Positions 12,269 through 44,181 of a stretch of DNA of 64,000 bases are shown here, in pieces. Position 1 is the first letter of the stretch, and each line of letters begins with the position of its first letter. The DNA is taken from IMG/VR virus record IMGVR_UViG_2565956726_000008; one strand, given 5' to 3'. A program made the position numbers and the translations under genes. The notes under the pieces are model-generated. The model was given only the letters and a program-made list of their open reading frames with translations, did no database searches and was not told the DNA's origin. The stretch is from a virus. Taxonomy: Duplodnaviria; Heunggongvirae; Uroviricota; Caudoviricetes.

Positions 12269-12730
12269 ATGAACGACATCAAAACAGCTTATTCACTCGG
12301 CAGCGACGGTATGTTAATCACTCGCTACACTGACGACGCGAGCTTTCACGAAGTGTTAACTAAGGACTATCACGAAGTATTAAAAGATATGAACGCAGGC
12401 GCATATGACGGTGATTTAAATCTGGCGCTACAGGTTGTTGATATTGTGATGGATGCGTCAATCCGCGATTACGTGTCTTTAAGCAGGGAAGAAAAAACAT
12501 CGGTAGCGCGTTATGTATTCTCTCTTACTTTTGTGAAGCGCATGGAGGAAGAATTCGGACGCGTACCAGTGCCGGAAGAGGTTGAACCGCTCGCGTTCGG
12601 AAGTGCTGTTATTTTTCCGTTGAACAAGGATCAGCTTGGTGGTGTTTCACTGCATTCTATGCGCGGCCTGATGAAAAATATCTTTGAGGTTAAGATGTTG
12701 CAGAAATTCATTGAGGAAGGCCACAAATAG
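12269..12730 (+). CDS. hypothetical protein (153 aa)
   Basis: ATG at 12269 with aagga RBS (longer ORF from 12239). Confidence 0.45.
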   Translation: MNDIKTAYSLGSDGMLITRYTDDASFHEVLTKDYHEVLKDMNAGAYDGDLNLALQVVDIVMDASIRDYVSLSREEKTSVARYVFSLTFVKRMEEEFGRVPVPEEVEPLAFGSAVIFPLNKDQLGGVSLHSMRGLMKNIFEVKMLQKFIEEGHK

Positions 12731-12988
12731 GAAGAAGTAAAAGCGCTCATGCCATTGTTTTACGGTGAAATGGTTGGCAATGATATGCGTGCAAATGATT
12801 TCGGCGTACAGGCGGCTATCGCTGTGCTTAATGAGGCACGGGAAAACGCACAGCCAATGCCTGAACAGGGGAAACGTGTACTGCATTAACCGAGTAATTC
12901 CGATCACATAAATATACATTTTGTATTGTGAACGCATATCCGTTTTGTAAGCCGAAATCAAAAGGTTTACGGTGCGGAGGAAGCAAAA

Positions 12989-16626: not shown

Positions 16627-17232
16627 ATGCAAAACCCTAAGAAACCAATAAGACGCCGTTGCAAATGCTGCGGCGTTTTTTTTGAGCCTAAATATCACAA
16701 TCAAACGTGGTGCAGCGACGAATGCCTGGAAGAACTGAAATTTGACCAGTTATGCCGCGACCGTGAGAAGGCTATGAAGGCTATGGAACGGAAGAAACGC
16801 CGTGATAGCCAGCGGGAAGAACGCAACCGGAAGCGGAAGCAGTTAAATCCGCGTAGCTATTGGTTAAAGCAGGCACAAGCGGTATTTAATGCCTATATCC
16901 GCGAACGTGACGCGCGGTTGCCGTGCATATCCTGCGGGACTTACTACGGTGAGCAATGCGGATACGATGCGGGGCATTACAGGACGGTCGCCGCCGCCGG
17001 ACACCTTCGCTTCAATGAAGATAACGTCCATAAACAATGTAGGCACTGCAATCAGACATTAGACGGAAACATACAAGCCTATCGCCCAGCACTGATTCGA
17101 AAAATTGGCCTCGCCAGGGTGGAAGCGCTGGAGAACAACAATGATACGCATAAATGGACGATCGCAGAATGTAAGGAGCTAATAAACATCTATCAGGCAA
17201 AATTGGACGCCTTAAGGAGAAAGGCAGCATGA
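16627..17232 (+). CDS. ninG: NinG/Rap-family recombination protein
   Basis: 201 aa from ATG 16627; close by-eye match to lambda NinG (W.SDEC, PRSYW.KQAQ.AVNA.IRERD, LPCISCGT, DAGHYRT.AAA..LRFNE.N.HKQC..CN). Confidence 0.85.
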   Translation: MQNPKKPIRRRCKCCGVFFEPKYHNQTWCSDECLEELKFDQLCRDREKAMKAMERKKRRDSQREERNRKRKQLNPRSYWLKQAQAVFNAYIRERDARLPCISCGTYYGEQCGYDAGHYRTVAAAGHLRFNEDNVHKQCRHCNQTLDGNIQAYRPALIRKIGLARVEALENNNDTHKWTIAECKELINIYQAKLDALRRKAA

Positions 17233-17657
17233 ACGAATATACATTTAGCCTACCTTACCCGCCATCGAATAACCGCTATTACCGACATTCGCGCGGTTTT
17301 CACTATATAAGCAAAGTGGGGAAGGAATATCGGGAACAAGTAAGAGACATCATCGAGCTATTAAATTTAAACATTAACCTACCTTGCCGACTGGCAATCG
17401 CCATCTATGCCGCGCCGCCGGATAACCGGATCAGAGATCTGGATAATATCCCTAAATGCCTTTTTGATAGCCTTACCTATGCCGGATTTTGGAAGGATGA
17501 CGGGCAAATTGACTCAATAAAAATTGTCCGCTGCCGGAAGGTAAAAGGCGGACGCTTGTTTATTAAGATCCGCGAACGCGGCGACCTACTACCGGATATT
17601 GACGAATACGCGACTAATATGTGGGGTGACAATGGAGACAATAAACATTGTTGTTAA
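17229..17657 (+). CDS. rusA: RusA-family Holliday junction resolvase
   Basis: 142 aa; PPSNNRYYRHSRG, DLDNIPKCLFDSLTYAGFWKDDGQI typical of RusA. Confidence 0.85.
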   Translation: MNEYTFSLPYPPSNNRYYRHSRGFHYISKVGKEYREQVRDIIELLNLNINLPCRLAIAIYAAPPDNRIRDLDNIPKCLFDSLTYAGFWKDDGQIDSIKIVRCRKVKGGRLFIKIRERGDLLPDIDEYATNMWGDNGDNKHCC

Positions 17658-17869
17658 ATGTACTCAATCAAGCGTCGATTTTTTTTACTGAAGGTAAAAA
17701 ATATTCAGGTTTTATAAAGCATGGGTGCTTTGCTTTCATTCTACAAGACGATCTTGTATCTGATTTCGACGACGCCGACGCATGGCGATTAGTCCAGTAT
17801 TTCCCGTCAAAAAATGAGTATTTTTTGCAGGGGAATTTTAAAACTCGGTTTAAGGTGGTAGAGAAATGA
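17648..17869 (+). CDS. hypothetical protein (73 aa, TTG start)
   Basis: ORF with ggagac upstream; only a non-ATG start is available. Confidence 0.3.
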   Translation: MLLNVLNQASIFFTEGKKYSGFIKHGCFAFILQDDLVSDFDDADAWRLVQYFPSKNEYFLQGNFKTRFKVVEK

Positions 17870-18048
17870 AAAACGAAATTAAAGATCTGCAAATAGATAT
17901 TCAGCGCGATGAGCATGATTTAGCTACAGTCCGACAAATTCAGGCTTTTCATATGCGCGAATTGCTTGCATTGAAAGAGCTTGAGAGGAAGTTAGTCCAG
18001 TCTATTTCTGATCGTAAACGCCTTATTGCTCGTTACGGGGGCAAATAA
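17866..18048 (+). CDS. hypothetical coiled-coil protein (60 aa)
   Basis: ORF coupled to neighbours. Confidence 0.4.
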   Translation: MKNEIKDLQIDIQRDEHDLATVRQIQAFHMRELLALKELERKLVQSISDRKRLIARYGGK

Positions 18049-18770
18049 TGAATCTGGAATCAATTCTTAAATTCCACTTCCCAAAATCACCGCGTTTGTT
18101 AGATGAAAGCCGGGGCACGTCCCCAGACTCGCTTAATACTACTGATGCACTAACCGCAGCAGGTATGGCGCAATCGCGCGTAGAGCTTGGTTATAGCGCT
18201 TTTTTAGGGAAGATGGAACTATCGCAAGCCGAAAAACACAGGGCCGTAGTTTTGCTTACAGAGCGTTTAAGAGCTATGGCAAAAGATTACGAATACGTCA
18301 TGGAGCTGGACGAGGACAAACGCAATGATCTTATTATTCTTGTTGCCGTTTTCGCGTTTCGGGATTACTGCCAGAGTGCCGCGACAGAAAAAACTTGTAT
18401 GGATTGCGGCGGATATAAATTTACGTTTGACGACTACGGAGAAAAACACCTTTGCAAAAAATGCAAGGGGCATGGAAAAGTTCGCAATCATTGTAAACGA
18501 TGCAAGGGGCGCGGCGAGATACCGGATAAAGCAGCCAGTGAAGCAGCGGAAATGCCAGTGTTCAAAACGTGCCAGCATTGCGGCGGGCGCGGGTACTCGC
18601 GTTTCCCTGTAGATCTTGTCCGGCGTGCGGTTAATCAGCTTGTATTTCCGGTAAGCCGATCAACATGGTGGAAAAAATACCGGGTTTTCTATGAAGACGC
18701 CATCGCTGAATTGTTCAAAGAAGAGGCGCGGGCTGATAACGAAATTAAACGAGTGACGCGAGGTGAATGA
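18048..18770 (+). CDS. Q-like late antiterminator candidate with DnaJ-type zinc finger
   Basis: 240 aa; four C-x2-C-x-G-x-G repeats (CMDCGGYKF, CKKCKGHGK, CKRCKGRGE, CQHCGGRGY); sits after ninG-rusA as Q does in lambdoid phages. Confidence 0.45.
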   Translation: MNLESILKFHFPKSPRLLDESRGTSPDSLNTTDALTAAGMAQSRVELGYSAFLGKMELSQAEKHRAVVLLTERLRAMAKDYEYVMELDEDKRNDLIILVAVFAFRDYCQSAATEKTCMDCGGYKFTFDDYGEKHLCKKCKGHGKVRNHCKRCKGRGEIPDKAASEAAEMPVFKTCQHCGGRGYSRFPVDLVRRAVNQLVFPVSRSTWWKKYRVFYEDAIAELFKEEARADNEIKRVTRGE

Positions 18771-19955: not shown

Positions 19956-20321
19956 ATGCAAATAATCATTGATTACCTTTGCCACGCTGCAAATACGCTT
20001 TTCGGTTTTTATCAGCAACCATTCCTGAAAGAATGGGACGAAATGCTTAATGACATCCTCGACAAAGGGTTAATAATGGAATTCGGGGAGCTAACAATCA
20101 AATTTAATTACGAAGGCAAAGAATATGACATATGGGTAGGAAACAGATGGTATGCATACGGGCATATTTATTCAATTGGCGGTAAATACATTAAACGAAG
20201 TCAGGAATTTAGACCGCGCTTCCGCACAATGCGACGACTGCATGACCTGCATATGAAGATATTTGGAGATCAGGAGGCACGGGAATTATTCAAAATTTAC
20301 GGGGGTAAATCATGGAGCTAA
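19956..20321 (+). CDS. hypothetical protein (121 aa)
   Basis: ORF in dense array. Confidence 0.4.
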   Translation: MQIIIDYLCHAANTLFGFYQQPFLKEWDEMLNDILDKGLIMEFGELTIKFNYEGKEYDIWVGNRWYAYGHIYSIGGKYIKRSQEFRPRFRTMRRLHDLHMKIFGDQEARELFKIYGGKSWS

Positions 20322-20542
20322 AAATCTGGCAGGCTATCGACGTAGTTGATAATGAATTAACAATGTTTGCCACTGACGGAAAGCGCGTGGTTATCGCTAC
20401 ATGGACGCATAACCATGATGATATTGTTTTTCGTCGCAAGGCTGCGGAGTGGCTTTTCTCTGACAACGGCTACACGATGAATATCATGCAGCTTTCCAGA
20501 ATGAAGGATGAAAAGCTGGTTGATAGTTACACAACTGCATAG
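20312..20542 (+). CDS. hypothetical small protein (76 aa)
   Basis: ORF in dense array. Confidence 0.35.
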   Translation: MELKIWQAIDVVDNELTMFATDGKRVVIATWTHNHDDIVFRRKAAEWLFSDNGYTMNIMQLSRMKDEKLVDSYTTA

Positions 20543-20552
20543 TGGGGCAAAT

Positions 20553-20786
20553 ATGTGTATCTATGAACACAAGCGGGATAAAACCCGCTTTTTTGTTCGT
20601 GCTGGCGTGGCTTACCAGTATCACGACTGCGGATATATCGAGGCGCTTGCTTACGATCTGGACTTCGAACAAGAAAAAGAATGGTTCGATTTCAAAATTT
20701 ACCGGAAGCGTAAACCGACGCGCGACGAGCGACACGCTATCCGGGACTTTTTAATCAGCATAGACCGCTGGGAGACAGAGGAATGA
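20553..20786 (+). CDS. hypothetical protein (77 aa)
   Basis: ATG at 20553 after upstream stop. Confidence 0.35.
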   Translation: MCIYEHKRDKTRFFVRAGVAYQYHDCGYIEALAYDLDFEQEKEWFDFKIYRKRKPTRDERHAIRDFLISIDRWETEE

Positions 20787-21070
20787 GAGCGAAGAAAACA
20801 GCAGATCAGAAAGCGTTAGTTATCACTACAACTGATGTGTCGTTATTCACGAAGGGTGAAGAAATAGATCTTAAATTACTTTTCGGCATGTTTGAGCCAC
20901 ACGAAAAGCCGTGGTTCGTGCATGAAGACAAACAGGGAAATATGCGCGTAGTAGTGCCGGACAAAAACAGCGACATATTTTTTGCTATTCCAGACCCGTT
21001 ACATGACGGTGAATTGCTGGCGGTATTGTTGATCGCTGATGCTGTTACTTATAAAGGGAAAGAAATATGA
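20783..21070 (+). CDS. hypothetical protein (95 aa)
   Basis: ORF in dense array. Confidence 0.4.
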   Translation: MRAKKTADQKALVITTTDVSLFTKGEEIDLKLLFGMFEPHEKPWFVHEDKQGNMRVVVPDKNSDIFFAIPDPLHDGELLAVLLIADAVTYKGKEI

Positions 21071-21294
21071 AAGTTAAATTCTTGCACAATCACGGCTACC
21101 CATCATTAAAACGCGTGGTAGGGGAAACGGTAGACGTTGTTCATTCTGATGATGTGACCTGCGTCATTTTGGGTAAAGACCTTATCGCTCACGGTGCTGA
21201 TGATTACTACATTAACCCGGCGTGGTCATATACGTTTAGCCTGGGCGACTTCGTAGGCGATAAGGGGCGCGGCTTGCAAGTAGTCGAGGGTTAA
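21067..21294 (+). CDS. hypothetical small protein (75 aa)
   Basis: ORF in dense array. Confidence 0.35.
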   Translation: MKVKFLHNHGYPSLKRVVGETVDVVHSDDVTCVILGKDLIAHGADDYYINPAWSYTFSLGDFVGDKGRGLQVVEG

Positions 21295-21298
21295 TATC

Positions 21299-21514
21299 AT
21301 GGACGTTTACGAAGATTTATACCTTCAAACAAATACCAGCACTTTTTATTTTTTGAAAAACGGCGTCGTATATCGCAGCGATGACGGGGTAATAATGAAA
21401 GAGTGGCTATTTAAACGCAAAGACCTACTTGATGACCTGGTTTTTGCCGGGATATTCCGTAAACGTCCGGCTAACCTGGAAGAAGAAATGCTGATCGACG
21501 AGGTATTAAAATGA
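21299..21514 (+). CDS. hypothetical small protein (71 aa)
   Basis: ORF in dense array. Confidence 0.35.
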   Translation: MDVYEDLYLQTNTSTFYFLKNGVVYRSDDGVIMKEWLFKRKDLLDDLVFAGIFRKRPANLEEEMLIDEVLK

Positions 21515-21762
21515 AAATCAAGGTAAGTTATTTCAGGGCGAAAGATAAGGCCACTGGACGGATGATGGCTATTCTGGTTAACGAAGCGAATTATATGTTC
21601 TTCCTTCAACCGTGGTGCATTGCCGATCTTAATGACGATTATCGCCGCCACGCTGCGCGTAGTGCTGTAGGCATGAAAGGCTGGCAGCCGCGCGACATGG
21701 AAAACTATAGCGAGTGGAAATTGGTGGTAAAATACACGGTCGATTATAAAGGGGTTTTCTGA
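21511..21762 (+). CDS. hypothetical protein (83 aa)
   Basis: ORF in dense array. Confidence 0.4.
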   Translation: MKIKVSYFRAKDKATGRMMAILVNEANYMFFLQPWCIADLNDDYRRHAARSAVGMKGWQPRDMENYSEWKLVVKYTVDYKGVF

Positions 21763-21986
21763 TGTTTGTAAAATGTATAAAGTCTCGTTTCCCTAATCTT
21801 TTTGTGGTTGATGAGATTTACGACATAGAAACGCTAATAAGCAGAACTAACGATATTCAGTACATTTATGATGAAGATGGCGATCCGTGGTTTTTTTATA
21901 ACGATCTCAATGGTAGCGGATTCGTTGATGGCGTTGGCGGTAATGGTGTGCCAGTTGCGCTATTTATAAATGCAAATAAGGAATGA
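21762..21986 (+). CDS. small protein, paralog family (G-x-I-Y ... DD-x-G-x-W)
   Basis: 74 aa; EIYDIE...YIYDEDGDPWFFY shared pattern. Confidence 0.45.
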   Translation: MFVKCIKSRFPNLFVVDEIYDIETLISRTNDIQYIYDEDGDPWFFYNDLNGSGFVDGVGGNGVPVALFINANKE

Positions 21987-22198
21987 ATATCATGTATGTT
22001 AGATGCACTGAATCAAAATCATCATGCTTTGAGGTTGGCGGAATATATACCGTAGCTCACCTGACTGGTGATGAACTTAACACCCAATACATTAAAGACG
22101 ACCACGGAGACGCGTGGCGCTATTGGGATTGTTACGCACGGGGACACGTTACCAGTCATTTCGGTATGGAAGCGATCGTGCGTTTTGTTAAATGGTAA
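21983..22198 (+). CDS. small protein, paralog family
   Basis: 71 aa; GGIYTVAHL...YIKDDHGDAWRYW. Confidence 0.45.
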   Translation: MNIMYVRCTESKSSCFEVGGIYTVAHLTGDELNTQYIKDDHGDAWRYWDCYARGHVTSHFGMEAIVRFVKW

Positions 22199-22207
22199 GG
22201 GGTAAGC

Positions 22208-22465
22208 ATGAAGCATTTATATTTTGAGGTATTGCAGACGCGAGACCGCAATATTTTTGAAGAAGGGAAGATCTATTGCGGCGTTCAACTCCACGGCGCA
22301 CCGGGCGGTGATGGTGCAATGGCGATAACTGGCGATGATGATAAGGTTTATTTCGCTTATGTTAGCCATATCAATAACGCCGCTGGTCTGTATATTTATC
22401 GCATAGTGCATGATTTCCGTGAGATCGCGGAGTTTTGCGCCCGCGAAGGCAGTAAACCGGAATAA
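22208..22465 (+). CDS. small protein, paralog family
   Basis: 85 aa; GKIYCGVQL...ITGDDDKVYFAY. Confidence 0.45.
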   Translation: MKHLYFEVLQTRDRNIFEEGKIYCGVQLHGAPGGDGAMAITGDDDKVYFAYVSHINNAAGLYIYRIVHDFREIAEFCAREGSKPE

Positions 22466-22475
22466 GTGAGGGGTT

Positions 22476-22715
22476 ATGAACCGGAACCATAGATACCAGT
22501 GCACATACTCACTATGCAGCGCGTTTTTTAAGAATGGCAAGATCTACGAAGTCGGCGCGGCATTGGTTGATGCAAAGGATCAGGAATATATTCACGCCAT
22601 TACTGACGACCAGGGCCGGTTATGGCGCTTTTATAAAATGGGGTACGGTACGGCGCTTGTTTATGCGCGTAATAGTAGTGGTGCTTTTGCTGCATTTTCA
22701 TATGTCGGGGCGTAA
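22476..22715 (+). CDS. small protein, paralog family
   Basis: 79 aa; GKIYEVGAAL...ITDDQGRLWRFY. Confidence 0.45.
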   Translation: MNRNHRYQCTYSLCSAFFKNGKIYEVGAALVDAKDQEYIHAITDDQGRLWRFYKMGYGTALVYARNSSGAFAAFSYVGA

Positions 22716-22717
22716 AA

Positions 22718-22933
22718 ATGATTTTAACGTGTCACGGATCTGATCTTGATTGTTTCGAAGACGGTTGTCAGTACGAAGCGGAAAAGCCAGGCGGATTACC
22801 GAAAAAACCGTTTTTAGTCGTTACAGACACTTACGGTCACTTATGGTATGCAGCGCCCAGCAAGGCGCGTGGCTGGTGGCTGATTCAGAATGAAGATCGC
22901 GAGGTTGTAGTGGCCCTCAGGCAGGACGAATAA
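22718..22933 (+). CDS. small protein, paralog family (divergent)
   Basis: 71 aa; FLVVTDTYGHLWYA. Confidence 0.4.
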   Translation: MILTCHGSDLDCFEDGCQYEAEKPGGLPKKPFLVVTDTYGHLWYAAPSKARGWWLIQNEDREVVVALRQDE

Positions 22934-22956
22934 AAAGCGTGATCTACCCCGCAAAG

Positions 22957-22999
22957 TTTACAAAATGGCATTGTTTCAGCAGTGCCATTTTGTTATAAA
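22957..22999. repeat. Intergenic palindrome TTTACAAAATGGCA-N12-TGCCATTTTGTTATAAA
   Basis: Near-perfect inverted repeat in the 100-bp gap between small-ORF arrays. Confidence 0.7.
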
Positions 23000-23034
23000 G
23001 AAGCTGAAGAGAGAACGATGCGGAGGGTAGAAAA

Positions 23035-23313
23035 ATGAAACGCTGGATTAACAAAGAAGTCGAATCTCGCTTAAACGCATTTTGGGAGATGGTGGAGAAA
23101 GAAGACCCAGCACACGCTGCAAGCCCTTACCTGAACAACATCGAATATCACTACATTGCAGCAAACAACGCGGAGTTCGAAGAAGAAGGTGGAGCCGACA
23201 AGTTCGCACAAAGCAACGCATTCAACAACGCAAACGAAATGATGATGGCAGTCATCGAACAGGCAGAGGAAGACTACGAATGCAAATCACTTGAATTTGC
23301 ACGCATGGCATAA
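23035..23313 (+). CDS. hypothetical acidic protein (92 aa)
   Basis: ORF with ggag RBS downstream of palindrome. Confidence 0.4.
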   Translation: MKRWINKEVESRLNAFWEMVEKEDPAHAASPYLNNIEYHYIAANNAEFEEEGGADKFAQSNAFNNANEMMMAVIEQAEEDYECKSLEFARMA

Positions 23314-23322
23314 GGGGGAACC

Positions 23323-23463
23323 ATGAACGCTAACGCTAAATATCCGGCCTGGGTTTTCGAACTATACGCCCGCTACTTTGAAGTATTGGCACCAGGTGAA
23401 GAAGCATTAAGCATTGACGAATACGCGGAGTGCTTAGGATTTAGAGGAGGAGAAGAAGAATAA
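23323..23463 (+). CDS. small hypothetical protein (46 aa)
   Basis: ATG with aaggggga RBS. Confidence 0.3.
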   Translation: MNANAKYPAWVFELYARYFEVLAPGEEALSIDEYAECLGFRGGEEE

Positions 23464-23502
23464 ACACGGGGCAGAATGGCCCCATCAAACGGAGTAGAAA
23501 TT

Positions 23503-23757
23503 ATGGTTGTGATCAGACTATGGCGCGGAGTTAGTAGGCTTGATGGCACATACAGCCGTGTAATTGAGGTTGTTAACAATAGTAGGTTTTATGAACTGGA
23601 ATACAGCGAAAAAAGGGAGAATGAATATTTGAGCGAATCGACCCCTATGTGGTGCAAAGTGGCTGGCCTTTCTTCACTTATGCGTTGCGGGTTTTATACA
23701 GATTATAACACGCTAACAGATGCCGAACTGGTGGCAACTCTTTACGGAGGAGAATAA
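23503..23757 (+). CDS. hypothetical protein (84 aa)
   Basis: ATG at 23503 with ggag RBS. Confidence 0.4.
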   Translation: MVVIRLWRGVSRLDGTYSRVIEVVNNSRFYELEYSEKRENEYLSESTPMWCKVAGLSSLMRCGFYTDYNTLTDAELVATLYGGE

Positions 23758-23760
23758 ACA

Positions 23761-24084
23761 ATGACTAAATTTATCAGTGTTAAAGTTTTCCGTGGCACTA
23801 TTCCAGAAAGTGAAAAATACGGCGAATTTAGTGGAATGCCTGGCGCATGTTTCCGTGTAGCTACAGAAGACGATAACCGTGTTAAATGTTTCCACATATC
23901 AGAACCGCCTTTCGATCCAGAACATCTTAAACATCCAGGTAAAATTAAAACGCTTATTTTCGCTTTTCTGACGATTAATTCTTACCCTGATCTTGAGGTT
24001 GATTTAGTCGGCGCGGAACTGGTCGCAGAATACAAAATAACCCCGGCAGAAAGCGGAGATTCTGAAATTGAGCGCATCAAATAA
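23761..24084 (+). CDS. hypothetical protein (107 aa)
   Basis: ORF in dense array. Confidence 0.4.
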   Translation: MTKFISVKVFRGTIPESEKYGEFSGMPGACFRVATEDDNRVKCFHISEPPFDPEHLKHPGKIKTLIFAFLTINSYPDLEVDLVGAELVAEYKITPAESGDSEIERIK

Positions 24085-24319
24085 ACCTTACAAAATCCGG
24101 TGTAAAGTGGAATATCCTGGCTTTACGACTGGATGCGAATACCTGGGCCATATGGGGTATGGCCCGTTCGGCGAGTTAGGAATGAATACGATTGACGACG
24201 ACGGCGACAACAGGACGCTTGATCTTGATAGCGATGATTTCGAATACATCCCGCCAGTCACTTACCGCGTCGTCGATGATTTCCTGGCTGAACATGAAGA
24301 CGAGGATGATGATGATTGA
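24068..24319 (+). CDS. hypothetical acidic protein (83 aa)
   Basis: ORF; acidic C-terminus EDEDDDD. Confidence 0.4.
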   Translation: MSASNKPYKIRCKVEYPGFTTGCEYLGHMGYGPFGELGMNTIDDDGDNRTLDLDSDDFEYIPPVTYRVVDDFLAEHEDEDDDD

Positions 24320-24512
24320 ATGCCTTATCGCTGTGATTGTTTTGCTTTATATCGCTGGCGCGATCCTGATGTCATGTTTTATTAAGTTTAGCGGCGCTGA
24401 ACCTGGTGGCCTTGAGATTCCTTTTTGGCCTGTGACTGTGTTTATCGCTTTCTTCGATGCAACGCTAGTGCAGATTAAGCGAGCCATTAAGGAGCGTAAA
24501 AATGGGAAATAG
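24306..24512 (+). CDS. small membrane protein (about 68 aa, 2 TM)
   Basis: Hydrophobic translation IECLIAVIVLLYIAGAILMSCFI ... WPVTVFIAFF. Confidence 0.4.
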   Translation: MMMIECLIAVIVLLYIAGAILMSCFIKFSGAEPGGLEIPFWPVTVFIAFFDATLVQIKRAIKERKNGK

Positions 24513-24726
24513 CGACCATCAATATGACGGCGTTTATCAGTCATTGGTGTCACGCGCTTATTATCGCCTTGAAGGTGAACACGTAATGATGCGATCACGC
24601 CAGTTTGAACTGTGGCATGAAACGGTTTTACCTGTGACAGCGAAAGAAGTTATCACGATGTTTAATCACGGACATTGGAGCAAGATTGGCGATATTAAGT
24701 TCAGGATGTTTAAAGAGGGCGATTAA
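24502..24726 (+). CDS. small protein, paralog family (divergent)
   Basis: 74 aa. Confidence 0.35.
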   Translation: MGNSDHQYDGVYQSLVSRAYYRLEGEHVMMRSRQFELWHETVLPVTAKEVITMFNHGHWSKIGDIKFRMFKEGD

Positions 24727-24909
24727 ATGATTGAAGATGGTATATACGCCGTGAACCTCATTGATGAAATGTTTTACCGCGTGGAGGGTAATGATATTCG
24801 TATCAGTATCGATGGTGGCGAGTGGAAAGAGCCATTCATGGATATGACGCGGGAAATAATTGAAATCATGCTTTATAACGGCGACGTGGTGAAGGTTAGC
24901 GACCTGTGA
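24727..24909 (+). CDS. small protein, paralog family
   Basis: 60 aa; DGIYAVNLIDEMFYRVEGNDIRI. Confidence 0.4.
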   Translation: MIEDGIYAVNLIDEMFYRVEGNDIRISIDGGEWKEPFMDMTREIIEIMLYNGDVVKVSDL

Positions 24910-25082
24910 ACGAGATCGAAGACGGCATCTATTTGCATAAGGTATTTAACATCGTCTATTTACTTAAAGGTAATAAGGTGATGATAAGACCTGATGACGA
25001 TCCACATTGGGAATCAAGCGGCATGGATCGCGAACACATGCAAACATTGCTTGATAATGGCCTGATATACAGAAAGCAGTAA
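24906..25082 (+). CDS. small protein, paralog family (GTG start)
   Basis: 58 aa; EDGIYLHKVF ... PDDDPHWE. Confidence 0.35.
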   Translation: MNEIEDGIYLHKVFNIVYLLKGNKVMIRPDDDPHWESSGMDREHMQTLLDNGLIYRKQ

Positions 25083-25104: not shown

Positions 25105-25332
25105 ATGGAAGAAAGGGTTTTGCTGTCATCAATATGGCATCGGTTCGGAAGTGAAAAAGGTTACTCACCTGCTTGCTGGCTGGATAGTAAAAGCGGAAAG
25201 GAGTATCAAAACGAGTGCGAATTTAGAAGGGAGTGGCGAGGCGGTAAGGAAGTGCAAGGATATTTTGCACCAAAACACGTTGCCGTCAAATACAAAGAAT
25301 GGCTTGTTCGTTTGCTTGGACCTTATCGTTAA
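25105..25332 (+). CDS. hypothetical protein (75 aa)
   Basis: ORF with RBS; last gene before lysis cassette. Confidence 0.4.
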   Translation: MEERVLLSSIWHRFGSEKGYSPACWLDSKSGKEYQNECEFRREWRGGKEVQGYFAPKHVAVKYKEWLVRLLGPYR

Positions 25333-25340
25333 CGCCGTAT

Positions 25341-25369
25341 TTGTAGAGCGCAAACAAACAGATTAAAAT
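25341..25369 (+). promoter_or_regulatory. candidate sigma70-type promoter upstream of lysis cassette
   Basis: TTGTAG-17 nt-TAAAAT; followed within about 30 nt by a terminator-like hairpin. Confidence 0.3.
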
Positions 25370-25397
25370 ATTTCCTAACAATGCGAAATTGTAATTA

Positions 25398-25419
25398 CCC
25401 GGCCCCGCGCCGGGTTTTT
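25398..25419 (+). terminator. hairpin plus T-run immediately upstream of holin gene
   Basis: cccggc-cccgc-gccggg followed by ttttt. Confidence 0.45.
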
Positions 25420-25439: not shown

Positions 25440-25640
25440 ATGTTCGACAGAATACGGGAGGCGTGTGCGTATGTGACTGGGGCCGTAACTGCTTTTTTCG
25501 GCGCGATAACCATCAATGACATCGCTGTTTTCGTTGGTATCTTATCAACCGTAGGCACATTTGCCGTTAATTATTACTTCAAATCACAGGAGAACAAGCG
25601 GGCGCAAGAGGAACACGACGCGCGAATGGGGAACAAGTAA
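25440..25640 (+). CDS. holin, pinholin (S21)-like
   Basis: 66 aa; two hydrophobic segments then basic tail; NYYFK resembles S21 pinholin; directly precedes a SAR endolysin. Confidence 0.65.
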   Translation: MFDRIREACAYVTGAVTAFFGAITINDIAVFVGILSTVGTFAVNYYFKSQENKRAQEEHDARMGNK

Positions 25641-38888: not shown

Positions 38889-39548
38889 TTAATTCCAGTT
38901 GCAAGCGTTTTTCACTTTGTCGATGTGGTTATAAAGACCATCAATGTTAAACACTGCTTTCTCAATGTCGCCAGCTTCCGGCACTGCTTCAATGATAAAT
39001 TGTTTTTCGTTAACCAGTTTTTTAATCATTGGGATGGCTTTTTTGCCGTCCCATAATCCAAGAGCTTTATAATTAGTTGACCGCCACCACTCAGTAGCTA
39101 CAGCTTTGTGATCGCCGATCCGGTAGTTAATATAAGTAGTGTCCCCAGCGTCAGTTACATGGTTTGACCATGCTACGAACATTTTTGTTTTATTACCCTG
39201 GCAAGCGATTGTTAATACAGGTTTGTTTTCATCCCGTGCTTTCAGTGTAGGGAAAGCATCAAGACTTCCGCTGAAATGTTCTGCTTTCACGAAAAGGAAC
39301 ACGTTTTTTGTGTCCTGCATATCATCTTTTCTTTCGACCACAAGCCACTGTTTACCAGCTTTTTCTTTTGCTAACTGTGCCTCATATGCGGCTTGTTTTG
39401 CTTGTTGTTCTGCAAGCCATTTAGCATTTTTCTCTGCTAATGCTTGTTGTTCTTGAGTGGTCACTATAGGCGCTTTTTCATTATCCTCATTGCAACCAAC
39501 CAGACCCAATACCGCCGCAATCATTGCCACTTTTGCTAACCGTTTCAT
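38889..39548 (-). CDS. moron: lipoprotein (219 aa)
   Basis: Signal peptide MKRLAKVAMIAAVLGLVGC with lipobox LVGC; Ala/Gln/Lys-rich coiled segment. Confidence 0.65.
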   Translation of the reverse strand: MKRLAKVAMIAAVLGLVGCNEDNEKAPIVTTQEQQALAEKNAKWLAEQQAKQAAYEAQLAKEKAGKQWLVVERKDDMQDTKNVFLFVKAEHFSGSLDAFPTLKARDENKPVLTIACQGNKTKMFVAWSNHVTDAGDTTYINYRIGDHKAVATEWWRSTNYKALGLWDGKKAIPMIKKLVNEKQFIIEAVPEAGDIEKAVFNIDGLYNHIDKVKNACNWN

Positions 39549-42104: not shown

Positions 42105-42359
42105 TCACTTATGAGTGCCTTTCACGCCACATAACTTGTTATAGGCATGGTGCTCAACAATTAACCAAACCTTCAAATCTTCGCTAAACAGCCTCCAATC
42201 AAGATTGATATCCATTTTGTATCCGTAACCGTCGCGTAACTTTTTGGGGTAAACTTCTTTTCTCAGAAAGGCTTTAAGTAATTCCTTACCTTTCTTGATG
42301 ATCCGGTCCTGTGCGTTTTTCTGTGCTTTCAGATTTCTGTCAATCGCTACCAGTTTCAT
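42105..42359 (-). CDS. moron: RelE/YafQ-like toxin candidate (84 aa)
   Basis: By-eye resemblance of C-terminal half (DINLDWRLF...GTHK) to YafQ (EPDWILIY...TGTH); second gene of a two-gene minus-strand cassette. Confidence 0.35.
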   Translation of the reverse strand: MKLVAIDRNLKAQKNAQDRIIKKGKELLKAFLRKEVYPKKLRDGYGYKMDINLDWRLFSEDLKVWLIVEHHAYNKLCGVKGTHK

Positions 42360-42377
42360 AACTCACCCCATCATCCT

Positions 42378-42533
42378 TAGTTAAGTGCCTTCAGGAAGAA
42401 GTCCCGGTATTCATCTTCTTTCGCATTCATCATGAATTGACCGTATTTGAATGCGTCGTCGAAACCCTTAACGATTGCTATTTCCACTTGTTCGAATGCG
42501 TTATTTAGCATTACTACTACATAGCGTTTCATT
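42378..42533 (-). CDS. moron: small protein (51 aa), antitoxin candidate
   Basis: ATG with aaggagg RBS; translation MKRYVVVMLNNAFEQVEIAIVKGFDDAFKYGQFMMNAKEDEYRDFFLKALN. Confidence 0.35.
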
Positions 42534-42699: not shown

Positions 42700-43053
42700 A
42701 TGCCGGAAGTGTTCAGATGGACGCCGCAAAGAAGCTACAGCGTGACCAGGAAGCCAGACGTATCTGTTGTTAAGCTGGGCGATGGTTATGAGCAAAGACA
42801 GGTAAAAGGTATCAATCCATTGCTTGATAGCTACACCCTGGTGTTTAAAGGCAGTAGCGCCGGATGTGGTGATGGTGGAAACGTAGCAATCCAGGCGGAA
42901 GCATTCTTGAGGGCGCGCGGCGCGGTCGAGGCTTTTTACTGGTCGCCGTCAATGGATAACGTGCAAAGGCTTTTTGTCTGTCGGCAATGGAGCATGACTA
43001 AAGACGGGCCTTTGTACACGCTAAACGCAACGTTTGAGCAAGTTGTTGGCTAA
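42700..43053 (+). CDS. minor tail protein, lambda M-like
   Basis: 117 aa; by-eye match to lambda gpM family. Confidence 0.7.
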   Translation: MPEVFRWTPQRSYSVTRKPDVSVVKLGDGYEQRQVKGINPLLDSYTLVFKGSSAGCGDGGNVAIQAEAFLRARGAVEAFYWSPSMDNVQRLFVCRQWSMTKDGPLYTLNATFEQVVG

Positions 43054-43250
43054 TGGGGGTTGTTATGTACGGGACTTGTGTAGTTGACAAAACTTACGCT
43101 TTTACATTGTTTGACGACTATGAGATCAACGACCTTACTGTAAAAGCTGACAACGGCGATATATGGTATCTTCACGACGTTGGTGATGGGTACGTTGGGT
43201 GTAGATCCCGGGAAGGGAAGGAGGTTTTATTTTTGGTTGATGGCGTATAA
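43053..43250 (+). CDS. small protein, paralog family copy inside tail module
   Basis: 65 aa; ADNGDIWYLHDVGDG matches DD-x-G-x-W family motif. Confidence 0.4.
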   Translation: MGVVMYGTCVVDKTYAFTLFDDYEINDLTVKADNGDIWYLHDVGDGYVGCRSREGKEVLFLVDGV

Positions 43251-43256
43251 ACACGA

Positions 43257-43285
43257 CCCCGCGCGAAGCGGGGTTATTTTTATTC
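43257..43285 (+). terminator. Rho-independent terminator
   Basis: ccccgcgcgaagcgggg + ttatttttatt. Confidence 0.75.
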
Positions 43286-43406: not shown

Positions 43407-43655
43407 CTATAAGTTATCACGCAGATAATTAACGCCCTTATCAGTGACGAATGAATGGTTAACCTGGTTTTCATCCGTCATGATGATGAATAACTTTTCA
43501 TGTAGGTATTTCGCTTTCGGGTACAGCGTTAAACAGACCTGGTACAGTATCCCGCGCTCAATCAGCAAATCAATAAATTCGTGTTCATGATAACCGATGA
43601 GGCGGGCGGCCTGTTTCAACGTGTACACATAATCACCGTGATTGCGCCGCCCCAT
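43407..43655 (-). CDS. moron: hypothetical protein, possibly DNA-binding (82 aa)
   Basis: Minus-strand ORF; third gene of three-gene cassette. Confidence 0.45.
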   Translation of the reverse strand: MGRRNHGDYVYTLKQAARLIGYHEHEFIDLLIERGILYQVCLTLYPKAKYLHEKLFIIMTDENQVNHSFVTDKGVNYLRDNL

Positions 43656-43664
43656 GTTGCCGCC

Positions 43665-44012
43665 TTATTTATCGAATGCTGAAAGGTTATCGATACAGAA
43701 ATCTTTCGCCGCTTTTTCGTATTCGCGTTTTGCTTCTGGATCGTCAGCCGGGAAACCTTTTGCGTGTATTTCACCAGGGCAAGACTGGTCCATAGAATCT
43801 GCATAATAAGCAGTGAAGCTACCATTAATATCTTTCGGGTTCATATCTTCCACCTCATCAACTATCTGTACCGGATTAGCAGCATATTTCACTGGATGGC
43901 CTAAACTACATTCAAGAATCCTGCCTTCTTCCAGGGCTACTTCTTCGCTATCAAATAATCCGAAACACTCCTTGCTACCACTTAACCACACATCAAGACT
44001 GTATTTTTTCAT
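43665..44012 (-). CDS. moron: hypothetical acidic protein (115 aa)
   Basis: ATG at 44012 with gagg RBS; overlaps upstream gene by 20 nt. Confidence 0.45.
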   Translation of the reverse strand: MKKYSLDVWLSGSKECFGLFDSEEVALEEGRILECSLGHPVKYAANPVQIVDEVEDMNPKDINGSFTAYYADSMDQSCPGEIHAKGFPADDPEAKREYEKAAKDFCIDNLSAFDK

Positions 44013-44181
44013 TTTTGTTAGCCTCATATTTGACAGGTTCGATCTGGTATCCCAAAAGGCGGTCATCCTCAGCAAGTAAAAGCGCGTCAACCAATGCTTC
44101 ACCCTCGTCGTCATACAGGGCGATAACCTTTTCCCTACCGTCTGTCATGAATACCGTCAACTTCCATAGCTTTTCAGTCAT
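43993..44181 (-). CDS. moron: hypothetical small protein (62 aa)
   Basis: ATG at 44181 with strong ggagg RBS. Confidence 0.45.
   Translation of the reverse strand: MTEKLWKLTVFMTDGREKVIALYDDEGEALVDALLLAEDDRLLGYQIEPVKYEANKNEKIQS

Follow-up and report, generated by a model that had tools for sequence, protein, structure and literature searches.

The subject of this report is the run of small genes between the antiterminator gene Q and the holin gene in a 64,000-nucleotide stretch of DNA (hereafter ‘the window’; IMG/VR virus record IMGVR_UViG_2565956726_000008), an E. coli prophage that belongs to the mEp021 (mEpimmI) group. We find here two families of small proteins, A and B, which are unrelated to one another and consist of real genes under gene-wide purifying selection. 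As an overall explanation, which we hold to be reasonably probable, we propose that both are variable accessory families of this prophage, and that their products are most likely binders of host proteins.

An earlier, sequence-only reading of this DNA had placed at least eight small open reading frames (ORFs) in a single paralogous family. We compared, all against all, the 24 plus-strand ORFs that tile 19.2-25.1 kb together with the ORF at 43053-43250 (300 pairs), setting each Smith-Waterman score against 300 shuffles per pair with a Bonferroni threshold of ~1.7e-4. Seven of the 300 pairs were significant, with z scores of 6-12, and the claim that these ORFs are paralogous beyond their composition was therefore borne out, in the very shuffle comparison that had been put forward as its refutation test. 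The single family was not; the seven pairs resolve into two disjoint clusters, {21762, 21983, 22476, 43053} for family A and {24502, 24727, 24906} for family B (ORFs being named by their first position). The same partition is drawn by the PHROG hidden Markov models (HMMs), with phrog_31142 matching 21983, 21762 and 22476 (E-values of 1.8e-38, 3.4e-9 and 4.7e-5) and phrog_3249 matching 43053 (1.5e-22), as against phrog_15318 for 24727, 24906 and 24502 (5.6e-33, 3.8e-31 and 1.2e-4). Both families already exist, in other words, as unnamed PHROGs; searches of Pfam, NCBIfam, PADLOC and PDB sequences gave no finds for either.

Profiles built for the two families from public homologues (25 sequences for A, 103 for B) align to each other in hhalign with a probability of 1.7% locally and 0.1% globally; no cross hits between A and B appeared in HMM searches of 1152 six-frame ORFs, nor in an all-against-all comparison of per-ORF profiles; and the folds predicted by AlphaFold2 are of different classes, all-beta with six strands for A and beta-beta-beta-alpha-beta for B. 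Because the profile-profile comparison is null, cross hits are absent and the predicted folds differ, we treat A and B as separate, unrelated families. The B model (24727) is a beta3-alpha-beta mini-domain with a predicted local distance difference test score (pLDDT) of 95.6, for which no close solved relative was found.

The shared motif that had been held to unite the ORFs fares unevenly. In a strict combined form ([GDE]-x-[IVL]-Y...D-[DENT]-x-G-x-x-W) it is found in 3 ORFs, where shuffles predict 0.01, whereas ‘G-x-I-Y’ alone, the sole motif joining families A and B, is present at chance frequency (13 matches against 7.7 +/- 2.8 expected). It might still be argued that A, B and perhaps 24068 descend from a single small G-x-I-Y ... 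W domain and form one diverged superfamily, given that both families carry G-I/V-Y near the N-terminus and a conserved Trp further on, that they sit within the same gene array, and that in one naturally occurring fusion protein (P0010, mEp013_60) the N-terminus is of family A and the C-terminus of family B. We consider this highly improbable in the light of the null profile and HMM comparisons, of a predicted six-stranded all-beta barrel set against beta3-alpha-beta, and of the chance frequency of the one joining motif; the P0010 fusion marks a deletion junction, which is no proof of homology.

In all, family A counts five confident copies, one frameshifted copy and one possible copy, and family B three (Table 1); a multi-copy family of a small autonomous domain, as had been proposed, does exist. 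Within family A the residues F16, Y22, G42 and W45 are invariant, with C8 and V56 nearly so. No other ORF of 19.2-25.1 kb, those at 21299-21514, 20312-20542, 20783-21070 and 24068-24319 included, matched either family significantly, the best being 20783 and 24068 with probabilities of 12% and 8%; membership in A or B of the ORFs in 20312-21761 and 22934-24501 is without support. The range first given for the array, 20312-24909, does contain members, but is too wide at its left end and too short at its right, where a third B copy lies beyond it.

Neither 22208 nor 22718 has a PHROG profile match. For 22718, orthologues in related phages (54% identical) match 21983 (blastp E-value ~1e-5) and the HMM of family A (5.5e-4), and we therefore place it in the family. 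The ORF at 22208, which has members on both sides, may possibly belong to family A as well, judging from its sequence; it is the top-ranked non-member in both hhalign tests, with only its N-terminal half aligning, in register, and with the hairpin Trp missing, and HMM searches give it E-values of 0.005-0.026. It is a real gene, its orthologues giving a ratio of nonsynonymous to synonymous substitution rates (dN/dS) of 0.17.

A further copy, passed over by the sequence-only reading, lies in the gap between rusA and Q. Its C-terminal fragment (17648-17869) is recovered at an E-value of 3.6e-9 in jackhmmer from 21983, and its N-terminal fragment, ‘METINIVVKCTQSSVDFFY*’, gives 0.12 alone. The gene is intact in two related loci (L027_1549_1797 and L025_1800_2048), which read VVKCTQSSVDFFTEGKKYSG and then DDADAWRL; DNA alignment with these orthologues places one extra T in the T run of the window, by which the gene is split into two ORFs. 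The copy is either a pseudogene or the product of a homopolymer sequencing error.

Divergence, selection and turnover

Orthologues were compared by the Nei-Gojobori method, 21762 and 43053 being excluded as having too few distinct orthologues among the loci. The resulting dN/dS values, 0.12-0.20 for family A and 0.21-0.28 for family B, are in the same range as those of neighbouring genes (0.08-0.34), and for this reason we regard both families as real genes under gene-wide purifying selection. The diversifying selection suggested by the sequence-only reading is accordingly rejected at the level of whole genes. That the ORFs are spurious, their shared residues reflecting composition, is a reading to which we give practically no weight, for although they are very short, lack Pfam and NCBIfam matches and are annotated as hypothetical everywhere, it is refuted by the shuffle z scores and by dN/dS far under 1 (from 3-16 distinct orthologues where enough were available), and it sits badly with confident AlphaFold2 models, 44 and 111 homologous clusters in public data, and tight packing with stop/start overlaps.

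The same reading had spoken of tandem amplification, and as a recent event this could not be upheld. Paralogues share 25-40% protein identity and no DNA similarity, blastn between them returning chance matches of 10-18 nt only, which argues against recent tandem duplication and for old divergence; either duplication took place long ago, or each gene was gained on its own.

That said, both copy number and allele content do differ between related phages. The ~5.2 kb around the array is 83-85% identical to mEp010, MagusPhagus, mEp044, mEp554, mEp013, mEp021 and mEp515, and among related loci the interval from Q to holin holds 0-4 copies of family A and 0-3 of family B. Most relatives carry alternative family A subtypes (‘MFARC…’, ‘MQVKCSYS…’) in place of 21762 and 21983, and two alleles of 22718 occur, with identities of 94% and 54%. 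Orthologues of 22476 were found in 23 IMG/VR loci, which is every related locus retrieved, but these loci were themselves found by searching with the 22476 protein. The Prokaryotic Genome Annotation Pipeline (PGAP) annotates five genes under 21762-22933 in NZ_CP030768; the full five-gene block occurs in one of 5426 complete E. coli genomes, and any part of it in 22.

Chimeric proteins are also found among these phages: P0010 has a 22476-like N-terminus, P0013 and P0015 are further deletion fusions, and across these and P0041 a family A protein supplies the N-terminal portion and a family B, 24068-like or 23761-like protein the C-terminus. The chimeras testify to deletions between the array's genes, and diversity here arises through cassette-like gain, loss, fusion and allelic replacement.

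The predicted fold of family A

The model of 21983 (pLDDT 85.4) is all-beta with six strands, and from it we predict for family A a six-stranded beta-barrel that stands alone, with a long loop joining beta1 to beta2. The residues K38-D-D-H-G-D-A-W45 form its beta3-beta4 hairpin, and we therefore describe the ‘DD-x-G-x-W’ motif as an Asp-box-like hairpin, the Asp-box being a beta-hairpin motif that recurs in different folds (PMC2716378). As in the BNR/Asp-box repeats of sialidase and Vps10-type propellers, the D-D-x-G-x-x-W of family A lies on a beta-hairpin, and the family profile catches BNR repeats; HMMER, run exhaustively against 1.84 billion representatives, returned 22 hits only, these being small coliphage or prophage proteins, a metagenomic protein (P0161) and BNR/Asp-box propeller proteins via their repeats, and the PDB sequence search with family A gave Asp-box proteins only, at non-significant E-values of 0.6-2.3. 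Family A differs from the propellers, however, in having one motif per protein, set in a barrel rather than in repeated blades, and in lacking conservation at the Ser and Thr positions of the Asp-box consensus S-x-D-x-G-x-T-W. The resemblance is one of motif, not of family membership.

Two identifications were tried and rejected: a BNR/Asp-box propeller protein, in view of the single hairpin in a predicted barrel of 61-85 amino acids and the lack of a BNR Pfam hit; and a PliC/MliC lysozyme inhibitor, which calls for a secreted or periplasmic protein with a barrel of eight strands.

P0161 itself is a protein of 402 amino acids with three tandem family A domains (‘KVKC…GKIYEV…DDxGxxW’) and no Pfam hit, encoded in a phage-like run of small ORFs (L037 5001-6209, contig k141_2836760); it shows that the family A domain can be concatenated.

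The best solved structural match of the family A model is Gp54 of phage Bas11 (PDB 9AXB). Gp54 is a non-essential protein of 66 amino acids and unknown function, and its six-stranded barrel topology has been described as very rare; by binding directly to the defence protein CapRelSJ46 (dissociation constant 800 nM), at the pseudo-zinc-finger, it triggers that protein, and close homologues from SECPhi27, Bas5, Bas8 and Bas10 do not activate CapRelSJ46 (PMC11578894). Family A proteins are likewise small (~65-80 amino acids), stand-alone and acidic, and come from a coliphage siphovirus, among small genes of unknown function; read by eye from the sequences, the spacing of landmarks also appears comparable (F21..G24..G40-x-x-W43 in Gp54, F16..G19/20..G42-x-x-W45 in 21983). 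They differ from Gp54 in sequence (9% identity) and in PHROG (31142 and 3249, against 7421 for Gp54), and also in number: Gp54, which is Pfam PF25180, ‘Phage antiviral trigger protein Gp54’ (116 bits), is the only gene of that type in the examined part of the Bas11 genome, compared with 5-7 copies of family A per genome here.

A Foldseek search of the BFVD with the family A model yielded many uncharacterised proteins of 63-148 amino acids from T1-like and other enterobacterial phages, at TM-scores of 0.65-0.84, and the predicted fold looks common among phage accessory proteins. Since family A is multi-copy, has T1-like homologues and is accompanied by dozens of such Foldseek-similar proteins, the models suggest that the Gp54-like fold is a common phage accessory module rather than a curiosity.

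Bas11 (L005) also contains two other small ORFs with borderline hits to the family A HMM (E-values of ~0.006-0.008), bas11_0048 (12582-12986, minus strand) and bas11_0071 (20145-20336, plus strand); their sequences hint at distant family A-like genes in the phage that encodes Gp54.

The copy after tail gene M and the role of the two families

The family A copy at 43053 had been taken for a member of the tandem set displaced into the tail module. Its homology to that set stands (hhalign against 21983 and 21762, 83-86%, E-value ~5e-6, with C8, F16, Y22, G42, W45 and V56 conserved), as does its place directly after M, but it is not displaced. The gene follows a Phage_min_tail gene in loci L029-L034 and in 7/7 sequenced phages of the mEp group, as well as in many E. 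coli prophages, and mEp021 possesses it while having no family A gene in its Q-to-holin interval; because the position after M is kept in all seven of these phages, mEp021 included, we regard the M-adjacent copy as a positionally fixed core gene and not a stray. The M stop codon overlaps its first ATG, and its true start is likely to be the ATG at 43065 (giving 61 amino acids), behind a GGGGG Shine-Dalgarno sequence. E. coli prophages with a more distant homologue show the order tape measure, ParE-like pair (minus strand), M, small gene, minus-strand block and L-K-I-J.

Homologues of the M-adjacent subfamily at ~50% identity also occur in virulent Rtp/T1-like phages, among small early genes beside helicase and VRR-NUC genes. 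These proteins, rtp57 and its relatives in the Rtp/T1-like Drexlerviridae, are genuinely homologous in sequence to the M-adjacent copy over their full length (phrog_3249); they are uncharacterised, and differ in that their genes lie in the early DNA-metabolism region of virulent phages and not after a tail gene.

No enzymatic signature was found in A or B, and nine of the ten proteins (all copies except one) carry a net charge of -1 to -9. We suggest that both families would be non-enzymatic, mostly acidic binding modules, whose targets during infection or induction would most probably be proteins of the host, or possibly those of the phage. The conserved F16, Y22, G42 and W45 of family A probably determine the fold rather than serve catalysis. 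The likeliest role would be counter-defence or takeover of the host, by analogy with Gp54, which alone among proteins of this fold has been characterised, and with what its authors suggested for it (PMC11578894). Several diverged paralogues would widen the set of targets, and the proteins could also be sensed by host immunity proteins, as Gp54 of Bas11 is. The small binding domain envisaged by the sequence-only reading is plausible on similar grounds, in that Gp54 binds a protein directly (PMC11578894).

A number of points weigh against this proposal. No member of family A hits the PF25180 HMM at E-values up to 1 or 5, and hhalign of family A against the Gp54 alignment gives a probability of 0.2%, so that no sequence homology is detectable and the predicted link stays at the level of fold only; the modelling covers one A member (21983) and one B member (24727). 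We found no later literature assigning a function to Gp54. Purifying selection across the genes carries no sign of an arms race, the M-adjacent copy, a core gene in the late tail operon, fits an accessory counter-defence role less well, and, as regards expression timing of the Q-to-holin genes, a promoter scan found fewer sites than in shuffled sequence and none convincing on the plus strand.

The conserved position of the M-adjacent copy raises the alternative that family A, or at least this copy, is a small tail-associated protein or a chaperone in virion or tail assembly. In its favour, the place directly after M is kept in every relative examined, the start overlaps or abuts the M stop with a shared terminator behind, and the gene is present in 7/7 sequenced phages of the group. 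We nevertheless think it unlikely; a strictly tail-specific role is disfavoured since the Rtp/T1-like homologues sit among early genes rather than in tail modules, and the remaining copies are found between Q and holin or between rusA and Q. Furthermore, mEp021_70 is labelled ‘hypothetical protein’ in a record where others are labelled ‘virion structural protein’ or ‘minor tail structural protein’, and it appears to be absent from the 16 virion-detected proteins, although a 7 kDa protein is easily missed on the gels used.

Binding of RNA or DNA is frequent among small beta-barrels, and the proteins might alternatively be nucleic-acid-binding regulators (Sm, SH3 or OB-like barrels) acting on phage or host RNA or DNA. 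We rate this as quite unlikely, given that all such matches are weak, that nine of the ten proteins are acidic, that no Pfam nucleic-acid-binding domain was found, and that the best structural relative, Gp54, is a documented protein binder.

Returning to the binding of host proteins, we can also entertain a more specific and, as it stands, rather unlikely extension, namely that the family A proteins make up an enlarged set of Gp54-like mini-barrels engaging host-defence sensor domains, such as the CapRel-type pseudo-zinc-finger, as inhibitors or decoys and sometimes as triggers. Were this so, the set of paralogues in the Q-to-holin array would decide which host immune systems an mEpimmI phage escapes or sets off, and in Gp54 we would be seeing one member of a large superfamily, united by fold, of phage modules that interact with immunity, spanning T1-like and temperate coliphages. 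Gp54 had previously been reported as a lone small protein; family A, unrelated to it in sequence, is predicted to share its fold, is multi-copy in a temperate coliphage, and is represented by homologues in T1-like phages too. This fold-level tie to a CapRel trigger is the one point of wider interest in what is otherwise an ordinary variable accessory region. The family A paralogues are concrete and cheap candidates to set against CapRel and other defence systems, and a natural system is at hand for what Gp54-like proteins do, with prophages that differ in their cassettes, natural fusions and a frameshifted copy.

Flanking genes and gene neighbourhood

Table 1. Coordinates of family A and B genes and of flanking features in the window
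Feature	Position	Strand	Evidence or remark
RusA	17229-17657	+	PF05866
Family A, frameshifted copy in the rusA-Q gap	17632-17869	+	Extra T in T run 17679-17686
Antiterminator Q, left edge of the variable small-gene interval	18048-18770	+	Pfam PF03589 Antiterm, E 1.3e-29
Family A, 74 aa, phrog_31142	21762-21986	+	Smith-Waterman z 12.4, p 7e-8 vs 21983; hhalign 100%; strict motif DEIY...DEDGDPW
Family A hub, 71 aa, phrog_31142, modelled sequence	21983-22198	+	
Possible divergent family A, 85 aa	22208-22465	+	hhalign 51% (E 1.5e-4) vs 22476 profile, 34% (E 4e-4) vs whole-family profile
Family A, 79 aa, phrog_31142	22476-22715	+	Smith-Waterman p 3e-5 to 4e-5 vs 21762 and 21983; hhalign >95%; dN/dS 0.12
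Divergent family A, 71 aa	22718-22933	+	Included by jackhmmer; hhalign 64%, E 6e-5 vs 21983; DTYGHLW hairpin; dN/dS 0.20
Family B, 74 aa, phrog_15318	24502-24726	+	Smith-Waterman p 1.6e-7 vs 24727; hhalign 99.95%
Family B, 60 aa, phrog_15318, modelled sequence	24727-24909	+	
Family B, 58 aa, phrog_15318, past the end of the range first given	24906-25082	+	Smith-Waterman p 1.5e-5 vs 24727; hhalign 97%
Intrinsic-terminator-like strong hairpin and T run, right edge of the interval, just upstream of holin	25397-25415	+	Terminator scan and sequence reading; counterparts annotated in mEp021 and mEp010
Holin	25440-25640	+	
Lysozyme	starts 25641	+	
Minor tail protein M	42700-43053	+	Pfam PF05939, E 1.2e-27
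Family A, subfamily phrog_3249, directly 3' of M	43053-43250	+	Smith-Waterman p 1.5e-4 vs 21983; PHROG E 1.5e-22
GC-rich hairpin (ACCCCGC/GCGGGGT) and T run, directly after the M-adjacent copy	43256-43283	.	Read directly; mEp021 counterpart annotated as bidirectional terminator TERM_11/12

Lambdoid phages have a hot spot for accessory genes (‘morons’) between Q and the lysis genes, as in the stx region of Stx phages, and another in the lambda nin region. Here too a variable block of small non-essential genes lies between Q and holin, its content differing among close relatives; it is dominated, however, by two paralogous families of mini-proteins rather than by toxins or tRNAs, and the mEpimmI phages are described as a Nus-dependent, non-lambdoid group (PMC11893012), in a paper that does not discuss the small genes of the array. 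The interval holds ~25 tightly packed small plus-strand ORFs, often with overlapping stop and start codons, all of which are labelled ‘hypothetical’ in the records of relatives. It measures 6.7 kb in the window and 2.0 kb in mEp021, and ranges over 2.0-6.8 kb with mosaic content in the 24 related loci for which the genes at both boundaries could be identified.

The terminator upstream of holin, with no promoter detected elsewhere, is compatible with expression of the array by early read-through. An ORF of 75 amino acids with a weak KilA-N match (25105-25332, E-value 0.0035) fills most of the gap 3' of the last family B gene, leaving only ~100 bp, containing the terminator hairpin, before holin; the region 25105-25415 may be a short unit of late promoter and terminator like lambda pR'-tR', a good promoter match not having been found there. 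An Rfam search of 17-26 kb found no structured RNAs. The Q protein has a DnaJ-type CXXCXGXG zinc-finger region N-terminal to its Antiterm domain (PF00684, E-value 1e-5, under the gathering score).

In the tail module, L-K-I-J are separated from M by convergent transcription and the bidirectional terminator, and a minus-strand block between the M-adjacent gene and L (43407-44114) contains a truncated KilAC/ANT-like antirepressor domain (PF03374, E-value 1e-6). Between the tape-measure gene and M, on the minus strand (42105-42532), lie a ParE-like toxin gene (PF24732, E-value 9e-12) and an adjacent ORF of 51 amino acids, kept in L029-L034, which together have the look of a toxin-antitoxin moron set within the tail module. 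A gene immediately upstream of tape measure, also on the minus strand (38889-39548), encodes a protein of 219 amino acids with a type VI secretion VasI domain (PF11319, E-value 5.6e-16), an unusual cargo for a siphovirus tail region.

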